Below, one piece after another: positions 4,762 to 51,148 of a DNA stretch of 64,000 bases. The notes below the pieces were generated by a model. The model was not told where the DNA came from. It saw nothing but the letters and a program-made list of their open reading frames with translations, and did no database searches. Position 1 is the stretch's first letter, and every line of letters starts with the position of its first letter. The stretch comes from an uncultured Candidatus Saccharibacteria bacterium (GTDB lineage Bacteria; Patescibacteriota; Doudnabacteria; UBA920). The stretch covers positions 183,178-247,177 of the forward strand of contig CAZQZS010000001.1 of NCBI GenBank assembly GCA_964597895.1, given 5' to 3'. A program made the translations under genes and the position numbers.

Positions 4762-5196
4762 ATGATCAAGCTACACGATTTAAAACGTCATCCAAAATCA
4801 ACCAAGCGCCGCAAAGTTGTCGGTCGCGGTGTTGGTAGTGGACACGGTACCTATTCCACCCGCGGTGCCAAAGGTCAAAAGTCCCGCACCGGGCACTCCA
4901 AAACCCCAGCTCGCTTTGAAGGTGGCCGTCAACCGTTGATTCGCCAAGTGCCAAAGAGCCGCGGTTTTAAGAGCTTGCATGAAAGCGCGATGGCAGTGAG
5001 CGTTACTGCTCTCAATAAATTCGCCGACGGCGATGTTGTAACCATCGCAACCCTAAAGAAGGCAGGACTTATCCCAAGCACGGTTAATAGAGTCAAATTG
5101 CTCAAGGGTGATCTTAAGCGCAAGCTTACAGTCGGCGTCCCTGCGTCTGCGACAGCAAAAGAAGCTATCGAAAAAGCAGGCGGCAGCATTAAATAA
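4762..5196 (+). CDS. rplO: 50S ribosomal protein L15 (track ORF 4723 starts inside the repeat; true start 4762)
   Basis: MIKLHDLKRHPKSTKRRKVVGRGVGSGHG. Confidence 0.92.
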   Translation: MIKLHDLKRHPKSTKRRKVVGRGVGSGHGTYSTRGAKGQKSRTGHSKTPARFEGGRQPLIRQVPKSRGFKSLHESAMAVSVTALNKFADGDVVTIATLKKAGLIPSTVNRVKLLKGDLKRKLTVGVPASATAKEAIEKAGGSIK

Positions 5197-41957: not shown

Positions 41958-43292
41958 ATGCAACCTATAATTGCGCATATAGATATGAATTCGTATTTTG
42001 CCACGTGCGAACAGCAGGATAATCCGTCGTGGCGTGGCAAGCCGATCGGGGTGTGTGAACATCTTGGCGGGATTATTATTGCAGCCAGTATAGAGGCAAA
42101 ACGTTGGGGAATTAAGACCGGCACGCCGGTTTGGGAAGCGCGCAAGTTGTATCCGCAGGTTATTCTGACTAAAACTAATCCAGACCGTTATCGGTTCTAT
42201 ACTGCGCGGTTTTTAAAAGTGTTCGCAGATTATACCGACCGTATAGAAAAGTACAGCATAGACGAGGCGTTTTTGGATTTAAGCAAGGCTTGCAATATTC
42301 GTGTACCTGTTTATAGAAATTCCTCCCCCTCAAGAGGGGGAGGAGTCACTTATGAATATGTAGATCCGTGGGAAGAAGCACGGCGCATAATTTTAGAGAT
42401 CAAGCAGCGCATGATTACCGAGGTCGGGGATTGGATTACCTGCAGTGCCGGTATATCTTACAGCAAGCTGGTGGCTAAGATTGCTTCAGATTTGCAAAAA
42501 CCAAACGGGCTGGTGATTGTCAGGCCCGAAGACAAAGATGTGTTATATGGTCGGCTGTCGTTAATAGACATTCCTGGAATCGGCAAGCGTCAAGAACGCA
42601 ATTTAAACAAGCTCGGTATCTTTACTCTAAAGGAGCTGCGCGATTATCCGCTCAGCAAGTTAGTGACGCATTTCGGCATTGGCGGTTATCATTTGTATAG
42701 CATGGGCCAGTTGGAAGGAAGCTGGAAGGAAAGTTTTGACGAAGAGGTGGTGGCGTCGCCCGTGAAGTCTATGGGACACATGTACACAGTGCCAATTGAG
42801 TATCGCAAAAAGAATGTGATGCGGCCTGTGCTGTATAAGCTGTCGGAGATGGTGGCTGCGCGTTTGCGCGTGAATGGTTTGATGGGTAATCAAATTTATG
42901 CGCATGCTTACAATGGTAATGAGGTTCATGTTGGTCGTGGTGCTAAGATTGGCTATTATGTACAGGACGGCCGTGATATTTATCTGGAAGCGCTGACTTT
43001 ACTACGTAGTACCGCGAGTTTGCAAGAGTTAGAGACCAATACTTATTTTGTTGGGGTAACAGTGGGCGGGTTGATGCCGTACTCCCCGCAAGCCAGCTTG
43101 TTTGAAGATAAGCCTCGGCGTGAACGCTTGGCGGCAGCTTTGGACAAGATTAATCAAAAGTATACTGACTTTACCATCGCACGGGTCCCGGCGTTTTTGG
43201 CTCGCGATATTATTCGCGATAGCGTGGGCTTTGGTCGGATGAAGGAATTCAAAACAACTTTCATGCGTGGTGGTCGGGGGCGGTTTCAGTAA
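41958..43292 (+). CDS. dinB: DNA polymerase IV (Y-family)
   Basis: IAHIDMNSYFATCEQ, SIDEAFLD motifs. Confidence 0.88.
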   Translation: MQPIIAHIDMNSYFATCEQQDNPSWRGKPIGVCEHLGGIIIAASIEAKRWGIKTGTPVWEARKLYPQVILTKTNPDRYRFYTARFLKVFADYTDRIEKYSIDEAFLDLSKACNIRVPVYRNSSPSRGGGVTYEYVDPWEEARRIILEIKQRMITEVGDWITCSAGISYSKLVAKIASDLQKPNGLVIVRPEDKDVLYGRLSLIDIPGIGKRQERNLNKLGIFTLKELRDYPLSKLVTHFGIGGYHLYSMGQLEGSWKESFDEEVVASPVKSMGHMYTVPIEYRKKNVMRPVLYKLSEMVAARLRVNGLMGNQIYAHAYNGNEVHVGRGAKIGYYVQDGRDIYLEALTLLRSTASLQELETNTYFVGVTVGGLMPYSPQASLFEDKPRRERLAAALDKINQKYTDFTIARVPAFLARDIIRDSVGFGRMKEFKTTFMRGGRGRFQ

Positions 43293-43326
43293 ATATGGTA
43301 TGATTAAGCCAAAGGGGGAAAATAAT

Positions 43327-43524
43327 ATGGAGGTCAGACCAAAATTTAGTTTAGAAGAGTTGGATGGAATGATGCACGATGCTCAGAAGATGAGCATAGA
43401 CGAATTCAGAGAAAAGTATCAGGATAAGATAGAGTTAATTCCAGACGACACATTGGCAACTATTGATCTAAAAGTAAAGAAAGGGTCTAAAAAGGTTGCA
43501 TTGAATTTAGTGGGTCAAAGCTAA
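43327..43524 (+). CDS. Small protein, paralogue 1 of cassette (65 aa)
   Basis: SD aaggggg; LEELDGMMHDAQKMSIDEFREKY paralogous to next ORF. Confidence 0.6.
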   Translation: MEVRPKFSLEELDGMMHDAQKMSIDEFREKYQDKIELIPDDTLATIDLKVKKGSKKVALNLVGQS

Positions 43525-43536
43525 AAGGAGGCTATT

Positions 43537-43854
43537 ATGTTGTTTAAAGAAGATGGTTCTACAGTGAATCTTTCAAGTCTCAAATCGAAAGTGACTCGTG
43601 AAGAGCTAAAGCAATTGTTTGCTGACGCTGATGTTATGAGCAGGGAAGAGTTTGCGGCAAAGTATAACTCGTGGATTGAATCGGGTAAGTTGGATCTGGG
43701 AGAAGCAGTTCGAATAATGATGGGTGAATTAAGTGATAATTACTTATTTTCAACCCCCGATAGTGAATTAACACCTTTTCAACAGCGAATCAAGCAAATC
43801 AGGTCAACCGAAAGACTGACTAGCAAAGATTTAAATTTGACTATCAATTGTTAG
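43537..43854 (+). CDS. Small protein, paralogue 2 of cassette (105 aa)
   Basis: SD aaaggagg; REELKQLFADADVMSREEFAAKY. Confidence 0.6.
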   Translation: MLFKEDGSTVNLSSLKSKVTREELKQLFADADVMSREEFAAKYNSWIESGKLDLGEAVRIMMGELSDNYLFSTPDSELTPFQQRIKQIRSTERLTSKDLNLTINC

Positions 43855-43934
43855 TTTAGGCAATTTAGAGTTCATTGGAGGTTTTCTAAAAAGTCTATCG
43901 TGCTTTTGCGAAGTGGTGAACAAAGGAGGATGTA

Positions 43935-44129
43935 ATGAGAGAAGAACAGAAGTCCGAACGCAAGTCTATTCAAGTTAATGGCGACTTAACACCAGAAGCG
44001 GCAGCAATCGCCAATCCGCAATTCGCGGCCGCTCAAAAAGCAGCACAACCGATGTATAAACGCATCGAAGAATCTCGTCGTCTCAGCGGAGAAGACATGG
44101 CTTGGACCGCGAATACTTTGCCGGATTAG
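43935..44129 (+). CDS. Small hypothetical protein (64 aa)
   Basis: SD aaaggagg. Confidence 0.5.
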   Translation: MREEQKSERKSIQVNGDLTPEAAAIANPQFAAAQKAAQPMYKRIEESRRLSGEDMAWTANTLPD

Positions 44130-44146
44130 AAAATTAGGGGGGTAGC

Positions 44147-44389
44147 ATGCAAGAAAAAGAACCTGCAGAAATCATTTGCGAAATGATTCGCAAAGGAGAA
44201 TTGTCTTGTACAATCAATCCTGACGGAACATTTACAAAAGCTGCTGAAGAACGAATAAGCCGGAAAATTGATGCATCTGAAAATGTTTTTAGTAGTAATA
44301 TAAAAACATTAAAAGATATGCGGACATTCTCAGCAGAAGATTTGAATTCTTACATCGGTCCTACGAAAGAAAATTCCTATGACCGATAG
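44147..44389 (+). CDS. Small hypothetical protein (80 aa)
   Basis: SD gggggg. Confidence 0.5.
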   Translation: MQEKEPAEIICEMIRKGELSCTINPDGTFTKAAEERISRKIDASENVFSSNIKTLKDMRTFSAEDLNSYIGPTKENSYDR

Positions 44390-44395
44390 TCACAA

Positions 44396-44431
44396 AAGAC
44401 GCATCACCCATGGCGCGTCTTTTTTATTTTT
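44396..44431 (+). terminator. Rho-independent terminator after small-protein cassette
   Basis: aagacgc...gcgtctt then ttttttatttt. Confidence 0.8.
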
Positions 44432-44476
44432 GTGGTATAATTAATGTAAGTTTTTAGCAGTACGAAACCAAAACCA

Positions 44477-44809
44477 ATGGCGAATTTGCCAAAATACAAA
44501 CAATTTATCAGCGAGTTTGTTCGCCAACAGATTAACGTGCTTGGGCCGCAAATTGCTGTCAGTACCGCCAATCGCACAGCGGGCCTGCAGGTAGATTATA
44601 AAGGGTCCGTAATTGTGATTGAAGGGGATGCAACTTTGGTTCTGAAAGGGTTACTCTCAGAATTTAGCAAACTGATCCCGCAATTGACTTCATATTTTGT
44701 TGAAGGCTTTTTTGCTAAATACCCTGATATTGCAGAGGAGTACGGTGAGTCACCGGCAAAAAGCAATTTTCATTGTGCCTTGAAGCAATCCAAAAATTCT
44801 GCCAAATAA
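44477..44809 (+). CDS. Hypothetical protein (110 aa)
   Basis: Follows TGTGGTATAAT promoter at 44431-44441. Confidence 0.5.
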   Translation: MANLPKYKQFISEFVRQQINVLGPQIAVSTANRTAGLQVDYKGSVIVIEGDATLVLKGLLSEFSKLIPQLTSYFVEGFFAKYPDIAEEYGESPAKSNFHCALKQSKNSAK

Positions 44810-46476
44810 TGACCGTTGTAGTTTTATTACTCATAGATTTTTTCCTGCTTTCTCTTGTGTTGGCGTTTTATTTGCGCAAGATTTATAAAGAGCGCCAAGA
44901 GTTGCTTGGGCACGCGAACGAATCTTACCAGCTACAGCAGCAGATGTATCAAGTGGAAGTGCTGCAAGAAATTAGTGAGCGCTTGGGGTATTCGCTAGAG
45001 GGAAGTAAGGTTATTGAAATCATTACGAATAGTATCGGTAACTTATTAGAGTATGAGACCGTATCATTCATGCTTTATAACCAGCCAGAAAAAGTCGTCT
45101 TTAAGTGTCACGTTCACCAAAGCGTTAACCATAGATTTATCACTGAAGTTAAAGAGCATATGATTACTGCTACAGAGTTGCTCTGCGGTGGTTTGGATAA
45201 AAATATTAAATTTGATGATACAATTGGCGGCTCTTTGCTTCAAGACCACTTGGACGTTGATGTAAAATCTTATGTTAATATCCCTGTTATCATTGGTAAC
45301 GAGCTGTTAGGATTAATTAATATTTCTTCCTCAAAGCCTAATCTGTTTAAGTACGATCAGGCGGCTATTTTGTTTAACATTACTAATCAGGCTGCCAAGG
45401 CTGTGAGTCAGCTACAGACTTTACTAGAAAGCGAAAAGGGTAAGTTGATCGGCATTATCGCTGCTATGACCGATGGTGTAATGATGGTTGATTTGGATAA
45501 TAAATTGGAAATTTATAATCCTGCAGTGGTTGATTTGCTGGAGTTACCAGTAGGCCGCGAAATTACTATGTTTGATATTGTTGACTCCCTTGCCGGTAAA
45601 GTGGATTTGCGAACGAAGATTGACGAAGCCTTGGCCAAGAGCGCACCGGTGACGATTAATGATTTGGTGTTGCGTGATAAAGCTTTTGAAATCACTATTA
45701 CGCCAGTGCGCGACCATGCCGGTAATCAGCGAGGTGCGGCAGTGATTTTGCATGATGTCACTTCAGAAAAATCTTTAGAGAAGCTGCGTCAAGAATTTAC
45801 CGCTATGATGGTGCACGAGCTGCGCGCGCCGCTTACAGCAGTGCGTTGGAGCGCGGAAAGCTTGCTCAAAAATTTAACAGACGCCAAAGCGCAACTAGAA
45901 GCTGCCAAACTTAAAGAAAGCATTTCTAATATTGATATCTCTGCCACTAACATGCTTGATTTGGTTAATGATTTGCTGGATGTAGCTAAAATTGAAGCTG
46001 GTAAGTTTGATTTGAATATCCAAGAGTACGATTTGTCTGGAATTATCAGCGATGAAGTTTCTACATTCAAGGCTTTGGCCGAGAGCAAGCATTTAACTTT
46101 GAACTTTATAACGCCTGGAGTGATCAAGGTTAAGTGTGACAAGATTCGTATTGGCCAGGTCATCAGTAATTTATTGAGCAATGCCATCAAGTATACCGAT
46201 AGCGGTCAAGTAGACATTCACTTATCTACAGATCCCGCCAAGCAGCAAGTTGTGGTGGCAGTTAAAGATAGCGGCCTAGGGGTAAGCCGGGAAGATTTGG
46301 CTGTACTGTTCTCCAAGTTTAAGCAGCTGAAGAGTTTTGATCGCACTAAAAAAGGCACTGGTTTGGGTTTGGTGGTTAGCAGAGGGATTATAGAGGCCCA
46401 CCAAGGTAAAATCTGGGCGGAAAGCGCTGGGGAAAACCTGGGTTCTACTTTCTCTTTCAGTTTGCCCCTAAATTAA
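44808..46476 (+). CDS. Sensor histidine kinase (TM, GAF/PAS-like sensor, HisKA, HATPase_c)
   Basis: H-box MMVHELRAPLTAV; G2 box GTGLGLVVSRGIIEAHQGKIWAES. Confidence 0.85.
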
Positions 46477-46517
46477 CAGAATAGTATAATTAAGTCACTT
46501 AATTAAGGAGTTAAAAA

Positions 46518-46898
46518 ATGCCCAAAATTGTGTGTGCTGAAGATGACCAGATGATTGCCGCCTCGTTAGTAGAGGGTTTTAAAGGTGCTGGTTTTGAGGT
46601 TATTTCTGCATATGATGGCGAGGAGGCTTTGACCAAAATCAAAGACACTAAGCCGGATGTGGTTTTATTGGATATCATGATGCCTAAACTAGATGGCATT
46701 GGTGTTGTGTGGGAGCTAAAAGCCGATGCTGATCTGGCTAAGACCCCGGTCGTAATGTTAACTAATCTGAGCGACCCAGCTACTGTTAGCAAGATTTTGG
46801 AAGCAGGTGTTACTGATTATCTGCTTAAAAGCGAACAGACGATTGATGAAATCGTCCACAAAGTAACCGAAGTAATGAACCGTGGTAAAGGCGCCTAA
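46518..46898 (+). CDS. Stand-alone response-regulator receiver domain (CheY-like)
   Basis: DD...D(LLDIMMP)...K pattern, no output domain. Confidence 0.85.
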   Translation: MPKIVCAEDDQMIAASLVEGFKGAGFEVISAYDGEEALTKIKDTKPDVVLLDIMMPKLDGIGVVWELKADADLAKTPVVMLTNLSDPATVSKILEAGVTDYLLKSEQTIDEIVHKVTEVMNRGKGA

Positions 46899-47364
46899 TT
46901 CTCAGCAACTTTACTTAATAGCACACAATATTCGCTCCTTACATAACGTGGGAGCGATTTTTCGCACTGCTGATAGTTTTGGCGTAGACAAGATTTATCT
47001 GACTGGTTATACTGGCACGCCAATTGGTAAGAACGCTGATAAAATTTCTAAAGTTGCTTTAGGCGCGGAACAGTTTGTTCCTTGGGAGAAAGTAAAAAAC
47101 TTGGGACCGCTCTTAAAAAAGTTGAAAGCCAGTGGTGTTCGCATTGCGGTTTTGGAGAATAATGTGAAATATAAAACCACGCCTTTGCCAAAGTTTAAGG
47201 CGAAGTTTCCCATTGCTTTGGTGCTTGGCGAAGAAACTAAAGGCAATACCAAGAAAATTCTGGACCTAGCTGATGATATTTTAGAAATTCCTATGCATGG
47301 CCAAAAAGAAAGCTTGAACGTTTCCGTGGCTTGCGGCGTTGCCCTGTATCAGATTGCAAAATAA
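46882..47364 (+). CDS. SpoU/TrmH-family RNA 2'-O-methyltransferase
   Basis: HNVGAIFRTA, LGEETKG, IPMHGQKESLNVSVACGVALY SPOUT motifs. Confidence 0.8.
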   Translation: MVKAPNSQQLYLIAHNIRSLHNVGAIFRTADSFGVDKIYLTGYTGTPIGKNADKISKVALGAEQFVPWEKVKNLGPLLKKLKASGVRIAVLENNVKYKTTPLPKFKAKFPIALVLGEETKGNTKKILDLADDILEIPMHGQKESLNVSVACGVALYQIAK

Positions 47365-47365
47365 A

Positions 47366-47388
47366 AAGGAACCCGAAGGTTCCATAAG
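47366..47388 (+). terminator. Bidirectional terminator hairpin between convergent genes
   Basis: ggaacc-cgaa-ggttcc. Confidence 0.55.
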
Positions 47389-47389
47389 T

Positions 47390-48169
47390 TTAGGCCATGG
47401 CCGGAGCAAGATGTCTCTTGTAGGCCGTAATTAAATTGCGGGATTTTTCCGAGTCCAGCTGGTCTCGTTCATCCCGAATATTAGTTTCCGCATCAACGCA
47501 GAGCGGATAGTATTTGCGAAGCAGCGGTGCTACATATGGGACTGCTTCTGCATATAGCCCGCCGGCTATGCCGAATCTCAGAGAATTTTGTAGTCCTCTG
47601 GCGTAGAGTTCAGTCAAGTAGCCATCCATCACATCAACTTTGATGCCTTTGCCTGTTCCGCCCGAAGGATCGAGCAGTACATAGTCCACCAAGTCAGCGT
47701 ATTCTTTCTGGACTTTATCGGCAAGAATTTTTGGGTTCTTGTCGATTCTCTCGTAGGCGCCTGGCCCGATTTGCAGGACAATCAGGTGAGGGTAGTACAG
47801 ATTGCGAAATCTTTCGATTTCTTTCGGGTTAGGCCAAACCATGTTTAGCTGAAAACCGTGAAGGTTATGCCAGCCTTTGTCTCCAAGTCGCTGCAGTTCT
47901 GTGGTGAAATTATCGCTGCTGCTGTTATAGTGAATCATATTCAGCAGCCGTGGTGCTTCTAGCAGCAGAGAGGGGACTTCGCTGAGTTTAGGGTAGCGAT
48001 TGGGGTTACTAGCTGGCTCGCCGTTCAAAGTTTTGCGGCTGACCAGAATTCCTAACATCAGATAATAATCGGGGTTAGGGAGAATGGATGTATCGAACAT
48101 ATCCGAGCCAATCACATCGTATGCTTGTTCAGCGGTCGTTATTCCCGTAATTCCATAATAGGGATACAT
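47390..48169 (-). CDS. TIM-barrel protein with phosphoribosylanthranilate-isomerase-like (TrpF-family) motifs
   Basis: VLLDPSGGTGKGIKVD and GIAGGL resemble PRAI phosphate-binding motifs; low-confidence family assignment. Confidence 0.4.
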   Translation of the reverse strand: MYPYYGITGITTAEQAYDVIGSDMFDTSILPNPDYYLMLGILVSRKTLNGEPASNPNRYPKLSEVPSLLLEAPRLLNMIHYNSSSDNFTTELQRLGDKGWHNLHGFQLNMVWPNPKEIERFRNLYYPHLIVLQIGPGAYERIDKNPKILADKVQKEYADLVDYVLLDPSGGTGKGIKVDVMDGYLTELYARGLQNSLRFGIAGGLYAEAVPYVAPLLRKYYPLCVDAETNIRDERDQLDSEKSRNLITAYKRHLAPAMA

Positions 48170-48191
48170 AATCAGCCTCCTGTGGCAGTGT

Positions 48192-48437
48192 TTATTCGGC
48201 AGTTGCGTATTCGAATTTGAATTCGCTGGGGTAGCCTTCGCTCATCCATTTGTTAAGTGATTCTTCGGTTGGCGTACGTTGGCATTCACATGAACACTTG
48301 GCTGTTGGTCGGCCTGGGATTTCGATGTCCCTAAAACATTTATGTTCATGAACGCCTAATGCGCGGCACTCTGGGCAAGTCAACTTGCCATCCTCCTCTA
48401 GGATGGGGTTTCCCGCCCTGTCTTCAATTAGTCCCAT
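48192..48437 (-). CDS. Small Cys-rich (putative Zn-binding) protein; start moved to internal ATG preceded by AAGGAGG
   Basis: CPEC...C..C.C pattern; strong SD 8 nt upstream of internal ATG. Confidence 0.5.
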   Translation of the reverse strand: MGLIEDRAGNPILEEDGKLTCPECRALGVHEHKCFRDIEIPGRPTAKCSCECQRTPTEESLNKWMSEGYPSEFKFEYATAE

Positions 48438-48579
48438 TATTAGTTCCTCCTTTGCGGTAAATTGTGCCATAAAGGGTTAAAAAAAGCTACCCCAGCGGTT
48501 AAGCCCGACTATTCCCTCACAGCAAGTAGGCGCGGGAAATCCTGTTGATAAACCCCTCACTGGAAAGGGGGTGGTTTAG

Positions 48580-49089
48580 ATGTATACTCACCAATCTAAA
48601 AGGAGTAAAATAAGAGATATGTGGAAAAGAAGAAGACTTTTACTTTTATTGAAACATCTTGAAGGGTATATTGGTTCTGTTGCTCACAATCAGGGTGTTG
48701 GAATTTGGACTGACGAGGTTGGGGTGGATTCTATTCGTTTCCAAATATTTTATGAGTATCACAATAAGTTGAGATATTTTATTCAATTTGCCTTTAGGGT
48801 AAATAGAGAGTTTTCTCAAGATGAGGAAATACCTAAACCCAAAAAGAAAAGGTTTAATTTAGCTGAGTTTAATGAACTACTTAATGTTTTAGAAAAAGAA
48901 GGGTTAGTTAAAATAACTAAACTAGCTGTCCACGAAAATATAAGAATTACCCTTGAGGGCGAAGAATATATCAAGCCGGCTTATTTTTACACAGCCATCT
49001 TGGAGAAGTTTAAAATTTGGTATGTATTCTTCGCAGGCTTGCCAATAGGGTTTGTTATAGGAGTAATATACGAATATATTGGTAAATAG
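48580..49089 (+). CDS. Hypothetical protein in AT-rich islet (169 aa), C-terminal TM helix
   Basis: Markedly lower GC than surroundings. Confidence 0.45.
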   Translation: MYTHQSKRSKIRDMWKRRRLLLLLKHLEGYIGSVAHNQGVGIWTDEVGVDSIRFQIFYEYHNKLRYFIQFAFRVNREFSQDEEIPKPKKKRFNLAEFNELLNVLEKEGLVKITKLAVHENIRITLEGEEYIKPAYFYTAILEKFKIWYVFFAGLPIGFVIGVIYEYIGK

Positions 49090-49326
49090 GTGTGGATAAG
49101 ATACATACCAAAATGTATTTAATTGATATACAATAGATATATCAGAACTGTTCTTTCAAAATGAAAGAAAAATATAAGGAAAACATATAAAAGAAAAACC
49201 CGCTTGTTTAGAACAAACAGGTTGACTTTTATTGATTTCTAGTTATAATAAGGTTTCTTCGACTTTATTGCCTAGACGCGGGGCATATACTTGGGAGCAA
49301 CTATATCTGAATTTCAGGTAGTGCTG

Positions 49327-49431
49327 TGGAGAGGGCGCCGGGATTTGAACCCGGACCTTGGCCTAAGTTGGCCTGCCTCTGGGGAGGTACAGTTTTCAAG
49401 ACTGTTGCTTTTTCCATTAAGCTACGCCCCC
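49327..49431 (-). tRNA. tRNA-Ser(UGA)-like, 105 nt, with abnormal 34-nt variable region
   Basis: Acceptor GGGGGCG/CGCCCTC, D arm GCTT-AATGGAAA-AAGC, anticodon arm ACAGT-CTTGAAA-ACTGT, T arm CCGGG-TTCAAAT-CCCGG, encoded CCA. Confidence 0.7.
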
Positions 49432-49534
49432 AAGAGTATACACCCCGCGTCTGAGCAATAATAAAAACGCTCAGTAAATTATTCTCTCAGAAATATTTTC
49501 GAAGGGGATGATTAAGAACTAAGTTTCTAGAAAG

Positions 49535-49681
49535 CTACGTTTTCACTGACGTAGTTTTCTGCTTTTTAGGGCGAGCGGGAAACTTATACCACTTGCCTTT
49601 TGCAAGACGAAGCTTGCCTTTGATGTAGATTCCGTTGCAGAATATATAACCATCTTTTTCAAAGCATTGTTGACTAACCAT
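49535..49681 (-). CDS. Candidate small Lys-rich protein (48 aa, CxxxxxxxC)
   Basis: AGGAGG 11 nt upstream of ATG; not in track (short). Confidence 0.3.
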   Translation of the reverse strand: MVSQQCFEKDGYIFCNGIYIKGKLRLAKGKWYKFPARPKKQKTTSVKT

Positions 49682-49743
49682 AGATAGAAGAGCCTCCTTT
49701 CTCTTCAAAAGCACATCTGAAAGAACAATAGGTAGGTATCAAA

Positions 49744-49854
49744 AAAACTTGTACCCGATTCATAATGCAAGGCGCAGAACCCTTTCGGGAATACGCTTTG
49801 TAGCGCATGGACTTTTTAGTTTCCTTGCACTATGAATCCGACACAAGTTTAGTG
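49744..49854. repeat. Palindromic element: ~28-nt near-perfect inverted repeat (aaacttgtacccgattcataatgcaagg / ccttgcactatgaatccgacacaagttt) flanking 50-nt core with two small hairpins
   Basis: Seen directly; adjacent to IS1595 transposase 3' side. Confidence 0.55.
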
Positions 49855-50012
49855 TCATGGCTCTGCCTATCTTGAGGGGGTCCAACCCTGTTTGTAAAAG
49901 TACTGAAATAAATATAGCATATTCAAAAAGCCAAGCAAATAGCTTGGCTGTGGAAAACTGATTATGAATCAAGAACCAGAAAAACAAGACTTCTTTGACC
50001 TCCTCGACGAAG

Positions 50013-50855
50013 CTATTGGTGAACCAGCCGATTTAAAAGCACCAAGAAAATCGGAACAGGAGAGCGAGAGTGAGTCAGACGAAAGCTAAACTCGTTTAAG
50101 TAGTCCTGCAAATATTTGGGCGAGACTCTATGATACGTGCCATCGATAGACCGCTTGATTTGGCTAAAGAAGCCCTCAACGCTGTTGGTGTGAGTCCAGC
50201 CATTAACATACTGCTTACTAGAGTGGTTCACAGAGCTATGACCATAACCCTTTAGGCTCTTGCGGTTATACACCGAAGCACCGTCAGTCATAATCGCACT
50301 GCCGGCCTCAACCTCGTTATGGATTAACGGAATGGTATTGAACTGCTTTATTTTCTGCATTACCACAGCTTTAGCACTACCGCCACGCTGAACCAAACCT
50401 AAAACCTTTGGAACACCCGCCCTAGAGCGTGGTGTTTTCATTTTCTCCAAGTAGGCTTCATCCACCTCAACCACTCCGCTTAGTTTTAAGTCGCTCAAAT
50501 CCATAAGGGAGCGGATTTGTTTAGCGATACGCCAAGCAGTTTTGTAGGTTACACCCAAGTCTCTTTCCAACTCTTTGCCGGAAACTCCATTACGAGAGTT
50601 GGCGAACTTGTAAATGGCGAAGAACCACAAGACTAAATCTGTTTCTGATTTATGGAAGATAGTCCCAGCAGTGGGGTGAATTTGATAAGCACAGCTAGCG
50701 CAAGCCCACGCTTTGCGTTTCTTAATCCTGTGCCAACTAGACTTCCCACAGTTAGGGCAAGGGAACTGATAGCCATAACGATACTTAAAGATATACTCCA
50801 AGCAAGCGTCATTATCTGGGAAGTCTTTTTTGAAGTCTTTTATTGTGTATTTCAT
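50013..50855 (-). mobile_element. IS1595-family (ISXO2-like) transposase gene; IS boundaries not determined
   Basis: N-terminal Zn-ribbon CPNCG...CASC; DDE region with DEAY, TDGASVY, HSSVNHS..YVNG.HTNSVEGFFSQIKR. Confidence 0.85.
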
Positions 50856-51148
50856 ACATTAAAGTTAATTATATTTTGAGAGTAACTCCATACTTACTTG
50901 TTGTCAAGGGATAGTCGGGCGGTTAAGTGTGCATAACTAGGGAGCTATTTCGGAGAATCATCAAAACCTTTTTAATTAAGAGGGTTTTTTTAGTTTTGAG
51001 GTGAGGTATATAAATTGAAAAATGGGTCAGAGTGGGGTATACTGACTTCAAGTGGAATGGAGTGGGGAAAAGTGGGGATAAGTGGGTGGATAAGTGGACA
51101 ACTCAAATCATTCAGATTTCTGAAACTAACAGTAATAGACGCGAAGAC

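Follow-up and report, generated by a model that had tools for sequence, protein, structure and literature searches.

An IS1595-family transporter insertion sequence with tRNA and structured-RNA cargo as the probable origin of an AT-rich islet upstream of mraZ in Doudnabacteria

How does a tRNA gene of odd build come to stand next to a long palindrome, genes without obvious relatives and a transposase gene in a single AT-rich islet? The question is raised by a 64,000-nt stretch of DNA from an uncultured member of the Doudnabacteria (contig CAZQZS010000001.1; called the window below, and the source of all coordinates unless another locus is named). A reading made from the sequence alone had proposed that the islet is a tRNA-associated integration hotspot. 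We have compared it with fetched related loci, 69 in all (denoted by L-numbers), and this comparison points to another history: the islet very probably is a single transporter insertion sequence (IS) of the IS1595 family, 2416 bp in length (48504-50919), that was inserted upstream of mraZ.

Ends and target-site duplication of the element

The islet is marked by a clear drop in guanine-plus-cytosine (GC) content. In the window profile the value falls from 0.47-0.49 to 0.30-0.33 across 48600-49350, in line with the decrease that the sequence-only reading had described from about 48580 onwards. The AT-rich spacer reported behind the first open reading frame (ORF) of the islet, ORF169, is present as well (49090-49264, GC 0.263); the other values are 0.327 for ORF169, 0.45 for the transposase gene, 0.40 for the whole IS and 0.45 for the window. 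The low GC content of the islet is the composition of the cargo of the element.

The ends of the IS, which had not been recognized by eye, were located by a repeat search, and a target-site duplication was found with them. The third inverted repeat returned by the search (48503-48528 and 50895-50920) is 26 nt long and 85% complementary, its arms being 2366 nt apart. The features that delimit the element are the following.

48496-48503, plus strand: left target-site duplication CGGTTAAG, the same as 50920-50927 and abutting the terminal repeat
48504-48528, no strand assigned: transposase-distal terminal inverted repeat CCCGACTATTCCCTCACAGCAAGTA, pairing with 50895-50919 at 85%
48553-48571, minus strand: terminator-like hairpin inside the distal end, CCCCCTTTCCAGTGAGGGG followed by TTTAT, with a homologue at the same position in L007
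50013-50855, minus strand: IS1595-family DDE transposase, 280 aa, intact (PF12762, PF12760, NF033547)
50895-50919, no strand assigned: transposase-proximal terminal inverted repeat, containing TATCCCTTGACAACAAG including a TTGACA hexamer that resembles a -35 element
50920-50927, plus strand: right target-site duplication CGGTTAAG, abutting the proximal terminal repeat
50928-50938, plus strand: TGTGCATAACT box in host DNA, abutting the insertion and also found in empty sites

An 8-bp target duplication is the typical product of IS1595-family elements. Since such a duplication lies outside the inverted repeats, the element must extend from 48504 to 50919. All features listed in the sequence-only reading fall within these limits, the non-transposase DNA inside the duplication amounts to 1.5 kb, and the islet as a whole goes back to a single insertion event rather than to a series of them. 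Moreover, over 46450-51098 the window does not differ from either of two independent assemblies (L001 and L002), and the islet is thus not an assembly artefact.

The intact ISXO2-like transposase of the sequence-only reading was confirmed by domain matches above the respective cutoffs (E-values of 1.1e-33 for PF12762 and 6.4e-11 for PF12760; 167 bits against a cutoff of 75 for NCBIfam NF033547). The element combines the DDE ISXO2-like domain and N-terminal zinc ribbon of the IS1595 family with inverted repeats at both ends and an 8-bp duplication. The names of the homologues (7632 at E <= 1e-10) place the transposase clade in Candidatus Doudnabacteria, Patescibacteria. An exact-protein look-up returned the same locus only, among the transposases of annotated plasmids the identity reaches 44% at most, and a distant DNA search of the 2416-bp element against plasmids gave no match. 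Judged from the hexamer, the promoter of the transposase gene may lie in the proximal repeat. In addition, passenger genes lie between the ends, in agreement with the concept of a transporter IS, or tIS (PMC7986276).

Recurrent use of the spacer upstream of mraZ

Ten distinct Doudnabacteria elements were recovered (those of the window, L003, L032, L015, L016, L007, L017, L019, L023 and L050), the transposases of which are 58-100% identical to that of the window. All ten lie in the spacer between a SpoU-type methylase gene and mraZ, and two more JGI contigs share the SpoU-element-mraZ arrangement, judged on gene order alone. The nine sister elements occur in both orientations and carry differing cargo. 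As the same spot is used in either orientation, this IS lineage strongly prefers the site.

The ends are similarly uniform. The 17-mer TATCCCTTGACAACAAG of the proximal end is identical in all ten elements, and a derived variant of the distal end, TATwCCCTCAnnGCAAGTA, is common to the window element, L003, L016 and L032. The hairpin inside the distal end has its counterpart in L007, which reads ACCACCCCCTTyCC...GGGG followed by a T-run. The core TATCCCTTGAC of the IS end is kept in relatives at 44-54% transposase identity; these distant elements, from other Patescibacteria, Limisphaerales and Calothrix, show GGyAAy-TATCCCTTGAC ends with perfect 8-bp duplications, and none of them lies near mraZ. 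A geometry of duplication, 6 nt and TATCCC, together with a perfect 8-bp duplication, was found in 19 of the 20 other complete elements (L003, L007, L015, L016, L017, L019, L023, L024, L027, L028, L029, L033, L036, L038, L040, L041, L045, L047 and L057). The exception among the complete elements is L032, which is without a matching distal duplication; the L050 element is partial, and its mraZ-side junction alone was considered. The 21 complete elements span 1.5-3.4 kb, and thus all of them carry cargo. The duplications of the Doudnabacteria elements, given for the transposase-sense strand, are listed here.

window: CTTAACCG (equal to CGGTTAAG on the plus strand of the window)
L003: TTTGCCGC
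L015: ACTTTTCG
L016: AGTCATGT
L007: AAAAAGCT
L017 and L019, same sequence: AGTATTTT
L023: TTCAAATT

Perfect duplications that differ between genomes indicate separate or renewed insertions, because copies 2 kb apart cannot change alike. A comparison of L019 and L023 is in line with this. Their transposases are 91% identical, compared with 67% for RsmH, 68% for SpoU and 77% for MraZ of the hosts, and their duplications differ (AGTATTTT versus TTCAAATT); transposases so much more alike than the hosts, next to unlike duplications, suggest recent movement between lineages.

Empty sites were found in L063, L065-68 and L069 (MraZ 96, 92 and 89% identical), with SpoU directly before mraZ. In the three close relatives found through MraZ, the empty spacers measure 270-430 bp and hold neither transposase nor tRNA nor ORF169. 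The right flank in the window aligns with them from TGTGCATAACT onward, as for instance in L063 (...TTGCTCTT / TGTGGATAGCTGGGG). L063 is nearer to the window genome than L003 is, and L065 is very near to L003 (MraZ 98%); as the nearest relatives of both are empty, the presence of the element is patchy even in the nearest clade. The suggestion of foreign DNA at a recurrently used spot is therefore well supported by these empty sites and the ten occupied Doudnabacteria genomes. A region that is syntenic and equally AT-rich in all relatives, which the sequence-only reading had considered the mark of an ancestral feature, is not what we observed, and this favours insertion.

The site itself is characterized by a short box. 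The window element was inserted some 330 bp upstream of mraZ, directly beside a TGTGGATA-type box and on that flank of it which faces SpoU. The TGTGGATA box abuts the duplication in seven of the ten Doudnabacteria elements and is 9-11 nt off in the other three. With mraZ drawn rightward, the junction in those seven consists of the IS, the duplication and TGTG(G/C)ATA; five of them abut the box by the transposase-proximal end and two by the distal end. The GGATA of the box and the GGGATA of the IS end are separated by about 22 or 32 bp. The box resembles both a DnaA box and the last repeat of an AAGTGG(G/A) array, presumably the MraZ operator, that follows the mraZ promoter. The literature searches, none of which was aimed at this point, yielded no report of an insertion site fixed upstream of mraZ.

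Several further observations concern this site. At 51031-51100 of the window, six AGTGG(G/A)-type boxes with a period of 10-11 nt stand just downstream of a promoter-like site, TTGAAA-17-TATACT, and the array is kept in all relatives (e.g. AAGTGGGGATAAGTGGGTGGATAAGTGGATAA). The sole perfect TGTGGATAA in the 64 kb is located inside the IS, just after the stop codon of ORF169 (49091-49099), and seven of the 20 one-mismatch matches to TGTGGATAA in the window cluster within 48543-51093. A replication origin was considered for these boxes; at this place the cumulative GC skew does not turn, and no enrichment of the motif is seen over the window as a whole. In three of the 12 non-Doudnabacteria elements (L036 at about 3910, L040 at about 3920 and L047 at about 3935) the left flank reads TGTCAA, 4 nt and then the duplication. 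This TGTCAA is the reverse complement of the TTGACA of the IS end, and end-like motifs may thus be found at these targets. RNA-guided targeting was dropped as an explanation, as five same-site sister elements are without tRNA and apparently also without hairpin RNA. Finally, two minus-strand genes stand between SpoU and the IS (47390-48470), encoding a 259-aa protein with a weak PRAI-like match and a Cys-rich 92-aa protein. Both are absent from the empty-site relatives, and L003 has a 45%-identical homologue of the 259-aa protein. As these genes are outside the IS and variably present, the spacer holds variable DNA in addition to the IS.

Structured RNA, tRNA and other cargo

The cargo of the window element largely consists of RNA features on the strand of the transposase gene.

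49744-49851, minus strand: 108-nt structured RNA with an 11-bp basal stem, a G-G mismatch, a 16-bp upper stem and three small hairpins, followed by a U7 run
49535-49681, minus strand: candidate basic ORF of 48 aa (ORF48) with an AGGAGG site, ATG at 49681 and stop at 49535
49435-49461, minus strand: 5' (leader) arm of a helix around the tRNA, pairing with 49265-49291
49327-49431, minus strand: cargo tRNA with anticodon UGA (Rfam RF00005; cloverleaf as minimum free energy fold)
49265-49291, minus strand: 3' (trailer) arm of the 27-bp helix around the tRNA, 27 nt, 85% complementary
49197-49223, minus strand: intrinsic-terminator-like site ending the cargo RNA unit, a 12-pair stem followed by TTTCTTTT

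The tRNA is unusual and real. Rfam RF00005 matches 49330-49431 on the minus strand with 62.1 bits (threshold 29, E 2.6e-12), and CCA is encoded down to 49327. The minimum free energy fold is a cloverleaf with two extra hairpins (-40.9 kcal/mol). The acceptor stem has 7 bp with G2.U71, position 73 is U and the D stem has 4 bp (GCUU/AAGC). The variable region of 34 nt forms two hairpins (CCUC/GAGG and GGCC/GGCC) and constitutes a 31-nt insertion relative to the Rfam model, which places it outside the range of the standard tRNA finders. ARAGORN reported only a tRNA-Gln for the window and missed the tRNA of the islet. Bacterial type II tRNA-Ser has a 3-bp D stem, a G73 discriminator and a single variable stem-loop. 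The odd tRNA-Ser of the sequence-only reading thus holds as far as a real tRNA with the Ser anticodon UGA and a long variable region is concerned, whereas the 4-bp D stem, U73 and the two variable hairpins do not agree with that identity; charging by seryl-tRNA synthetase is putative. The leader/trailer duplex around the tRNA has a predicted energy of -46.0 kcal/mol, versus -22.5 +/- 3.5 for shuffled sequences, and equivalents of similar strength and unrelated sequence are found in L015 and L016. The tRNA of the window is most likely expressed.

Seven of the 21 complete elements (those of the window, L015, L016, L024, L028, L038 and L045) enclose a tRNA within their ends.

window: anticodon UGA; 34-nt variable region, U73
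L015: anticodon GGA; both IS ends perfect
L016, 5072-5162: anticodon UUU; G3.U70, A73, long variable arm
L024 (5846-5931), L028 (3051-3137) and L038 (3616-3706): anticodon UUA; Leu-like type-II body, on the strand opposite to the transposase
L045, 592-667: anticodon UGC; class I, without G3.U70; G1.U72, U73, U37; upstream of the transposase, between IS end and gene

The identity features of these cargo tRNAs are mismatched. All of them have D and T arms of the canonical kind and differ from one another in anticodon, discriminator and variable arm. The elements of L024, L028 and L038 have perfect 8-bp duplications, and that of L045 measures 2205 bp and is flanked by the duplication CTTAATTA. 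The UUA anticodons resemble those of ochre suppressors; the hosts use TAA as a stop codon, and the transposase genes of L024, L028 and L038 end in TAA. The tRNA of L016, in which a Lys anticodon meets the alanine determinant G3.U70 plus A73, is a candidate Lys-to-Ala mistranslating tRNA. A 'tRNA-Phe(aaa)' reported by ARAGORN in L036 was rejected as a false positive, being a terminator hairpin without Rfam match. A scan of viral contigs for a degenerate pattern of the window tRNA gave no match, and the full-text literature searches that were made yielded no report of IS1595 elements carrying tRNA genes. As a side observation, L028 also carries a weak SocA/Panacea-like antitoxin ORF (2100-2597) with a 144-aa partner.

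The cargo RNA unit opens with the palindrome. The sequence-only reading described arms of 28 nt with two mismatches; the arms (49745-49772 and 49823-49850) and the 50 nt between them were found as described, and the mismatches in the DNA are four. Because three of these become G.U pairs on the minus strand, leaving one G-G, that strand folds better (-47.6 kcal/mol, z -6.3) than the plus strand (-38.4 kcal/mol). Counterparts of 112-117 nt occur at the same position and on the same strand in L015, L016, L036 and L032, and share a layout in which a basal stem of 8-11 bp, a 1x1 mismatch and an upper stem of 12-20 bp enclose two or three small hairpins. Folding strongly favours the transposase strand, with 3-7 G.U pairs, in four of the five elements; in L032 the gap is only about 1 kcal/mol. 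Hairpins with arms of at least 23 nt number five in 384 kb, both strands considered, and four of them belong to these elements. The alignment of the hairpins was anchored manually on the mismatch, after MAFFT did not align them; in the anchored arms of four elements 16 of 20 pairs covary, a single U.G pair does not vary and the mismatch is between two purines throughout. No Rfam match was obtained, neither at E <= 5 in the window nor at E <= 1 in L015, L016, L036 and L032.

The idea that the palindrome is a miniature inverted-repeat transposable element (MITE) derived from the IS was not supported. The hairpin arm is absent from viral contigs, no other copy occurs in the window or the 69 fetched loci, a flanking duplication is missing and the arms do not resemble the IS ends (z about 0.2); single-copy and unlike the ends, the hairpin is therefore not a MITE. 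A likeness of hairpin arms to IS ends that we noted by eye was not upheld by a shuffle test, with L036 as sole exception: there (4969-5080) the upper 5' arm contains a stretch, at about 1.07 kb from the proximal end, that agrees at 16 of 17 positions with the element's own terminal repeat in reverse complement (z 4.2) and may be the relic of an ancestral inner IS end. The hairpin was also considered as terminator of the transposase gene and rejected, since the gene has a terminator of its own (49929-49949) and the hairpin stands at the start of the following unit.

The remaining features of the element are these.

49929-49949, minus strand: terminator-like hairpin 3' of the transposase gene, an 8-pair stem followed by TTTTG
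49964-50089, plus strand: small convergent ORF of 41 aa (MNQEPEKQDFFDLLDEAIG...), overlapping the 3' end of the transposase gene
48580-49089, plus strand: ORF169, 169 aa, with a possible start at Met14 (48619)

In 14 of 26 elements from the whole IS group the motif [KDE]F[FL]xLLHxAI of the antisense ORF recurs at that place; as the motif is encoded outside the transposase ORF, its conservation is no by-product of the overlap. The 48-aa ORF with AGGAGG proposed earlier is indeed present, the AGGAGG being located 11 nt upstream of the ATG at 49681. In L032 and L036, too, small basic ORFs stand after the corresponding hairpin; homology among the ORFs of the three elements was not demonstrable, and no family match was found in Pfam or NCBIfam. 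ORF169 had been called an orphan. The ORF exists, and a word-index search returned only the protein itself, yet a full HMMER search revealed a rare family with one member at 43% identity (P0122, E 5e-27) and four more at about 30%, so that it is not strictly an orphan. Pfam gave DUF6293_C at E 0.007, and the AF2 model has a pLDDT of 71. In the fold search the top PDB matches were all winged-helix proteins and none was significant (E >= 0.1); as modelled, ORF169 probably is a winged-helix protein with a C-terminal membrane helix. Outside the element, a second stretch of lowered GC content (0.36-0.42) with a strong positive GC skew was observed at 43200-45500, upstream of histidine-kinase and response-regulator genes.

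Competing explanations, mechanism and known systems

The association of a tRNA gene with mobile DNA has an established explanation, as tRNA genes are classic integration sites. The islet could accordingly be read as a resident chromosomal tRNA gene, serving as a hotspot at which orphan genes, palindrome and IS arrived as separate insertions, and the variability of the SpoU-mraZ spacer, with its 259-aa and 92-aa genes in some genomes only, would suit such a history. However, the tRNA is enclosed by the IS ends and, outside these, by the duplication. The empty sites and five of the nine sister elements have no tRNA, and sister elements at other loci hold tRNAs inside perfect boundaries. No repeat of the tRNA 3' end was found within the window, and no integrase gene was noted when the ORFs and Pfam domains near the islet were examined; the marks of a tRNA-anchored genomic island, namely an integrase next to the tRNA, a direct repeat of its 3' end and the tRNA in empty sites, were thus not found. 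The site is marked instead by the TGTGGATA-type box upstream of the mraZ promoter, and we give the tRNA-anchored hotspot hardly any credence. The same slight probability applies to a minimal IS of about 1.1 kb that lost its inner end near 49830 and came to lie beside unrelated DNA, the outer repeat at 48504 being a relic. Typical IS1595 elements are about 1 kb long, and the end match in the L036 hairpin, at about that distance from the proximal end, suggests that the hairpins may descend from an old inner end. Such a history is at odds with the identical 8-bp duplication outside the outer repeats and with the size of the 21 complete elements, all but L032 having perfect outer duplications, and the arms of the window hairpin are unlike IS ends (z 0.2). 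A vertically inherited, possibly domesticated transposase that is kept for a host function has somewhat more in its favour and is still very unlikely in our view. It would account for a single copy in the same spacer of ten genomes, for intact transposase ORFs at 58-77% identity and for clades that broadly match those of the hosts. Against it stand the empty sites in the nearest relatives of the window (L063) and of L003 (L065), the perfect duplications in nine of the ten occupied genomes, with eight distinct sequences of which only L017 and L019 share one, at copies too far apart to drift in parallel, the occurrence of both orientations and the L019/L023 transposases that are far more similar than their hosts.

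A single transporter IS is therefore the reading that we prefer, and a number of points weigh against it. The distal and proximal repeats of the window element differ at four positions and by an indel. There is one copy per genome, always at the same locus, and the transposase clades broadly track the host clades, a pattern that would also fit a vertically kept, possibly domesticated gene; transposition is indirectly suggested by the empty sites and the per-genome duplications. The targeting cue, end mimicry or a host protein bound to the box, is plausible and something that we purely infer. The arms of the hairpins were chosen because they pair, which is circular, and for this reason only their covariation counts and not the percentage paired. 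Furthermore, the window tRNA, ORF48 and the exact hairpin sequence are known from one genome, and covariation cannot test their function.

The function of the cargo tRNAs allows for more than one explanation. The window tRNA may decode UCN codons, act as a mis-charging tRNA or serve as a tRNA-like processing handle. In a general form of the last explanation, the cargo tRNA would be a non-decoding module that recruits RNase P and RNase Z and, with the long helices, sets the ends of the cargo transcript, leaving its identity elements free to drift. In fact, the three Doudnabacteria cargo tRNAs keep canonical D and T arms and differ in anticodon (UGA, GGA, UUU), discriminator (U, C, A), acceptor stem and variable arm; all three are enclosed in strong leader-trailer helices, and the variable region in the window is far over normal length. 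Yet the anticodon loops of the window tRNA and its Doudnabacteria sisters keep U33 and a purine at position 37, CCA is encoded, and engineered tRNAs with a hairpin added in a long variable arm can stay active in translation (PMC7590224). We regard the non-decoding module as a minority possibility. A wider proposal holds that a lineage of Patescibacteria IS1595 elements homes to the TGTGGATA box upstream of the promoter of the division and cell wall (dcw) cluster, by end mimicry or a host protein, and spreads functional non-canonical tRNAs (ochre suppressors, a Lys-anticodon tRNA with G3.U70, a six-armed UGA tRNA) from a transcript begun by an undescribed structured RNA. This proposal is tentative and, taken as a whole, rather doubtful.

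The following mechanism would be consistent with the transporter IS. By analogy with its family, the DDE transposase would bind the subterminal TATCCCTTGACA motifs of both ends and cut the target with an 8-bp stagger. Repair of the staggered cuts would have made the CGGTTAAG duplication; the ends and the duplication are seen directly. The target could be recognized by way of the GGATA motif of the box, mimicking an IS end two or three helical turns away, or by way of a host protein bound to the box. The cargo unit would be transcribed from the transposase strand, in the order 108-nt RNA, basic ORF, tRNA in its 27-bp helix and terminator, with ORF169 convergent to it. The 27-28-bp helices most likely would act as RNase III-type processing stems or stabilizing stems of the cargo transcript.

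If the wider proposal is true, a simple DDE IS would serve to transport tRNAs for recoding, mistranslation or anti-defence among genomes with only one copy of most tRNAs. The cargo of tIS is normally protein-coding, and a cargo of tRNA and structured RNA would constitute a compact route by which components of translation move between bacteria with minimal genomes. Insertion that almost always takes place beside the same box would provide a tractable case of target choice by a small single-protein DDE transposase. In addition, the window tRNA illustrates that standard finders miss real tRNA-like genes with over-long variable regions.

The transporter IS as such is already known; what seems to be new is the preference for one site and the cargo of RNA and tRNA. 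Siguier, Gagnevin and Chandler reportedly defined the IS1595 family and described transporter IS in 2009. With the tIS of that family the window element shares a zinc-ribbon DDE transposase, short terminal repeats, the 8-bp duplication and passengers. It differs from them in a cargo that is largely RNA (tRNA and structured RNA), in a fixed site within the clade and in a conserved antisense ORF over the 3' end of the transposase gene. Site-specific DDE transposons (Tn7 at attTn7) and end-targeting ISs such as IS30 are alike in the fixed distance from a conserved sequence and the gene-sparing site, with a GGATA box here that is like the IS end. In contrast, the present element has a single small transposase, no TnsD-like protein and both orientations, and its box TGTGGATA is DnaA-box- or MraZ-box-like. 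The tRNAs of phages and other mobile elements, which include suppressors, likewise come with their own promoter and terminator, and some of the relatives described here have UUA anticodons; here the vehicle is an IS of 1.6-2.4 kb with one tRNA and not a phage, a plasmid or a tRNA array, and the hosts use the TAA stop. Allo-tRNAs and aptamer-tagged tRNAs resemble the window tRNA in the long variable arm, an anticodon that does not fit the body and the tolerance of extra hairpins (PMC7590224), whereas the window tRNA has the standard 7/5 acceptor/T arrangement, a type-I-like 4-bp D stem, U73 and two hairpins, a combination not found in any of the relatives studied here. Finally, the leader-trailer stems of rRNA operons, which are substrates of RNase III, are comparable to the 27-bp helix in that both surround a stable RNA gene; the difference is that here a single tRNA in a transposon is enclosed and that cleavage is putative.

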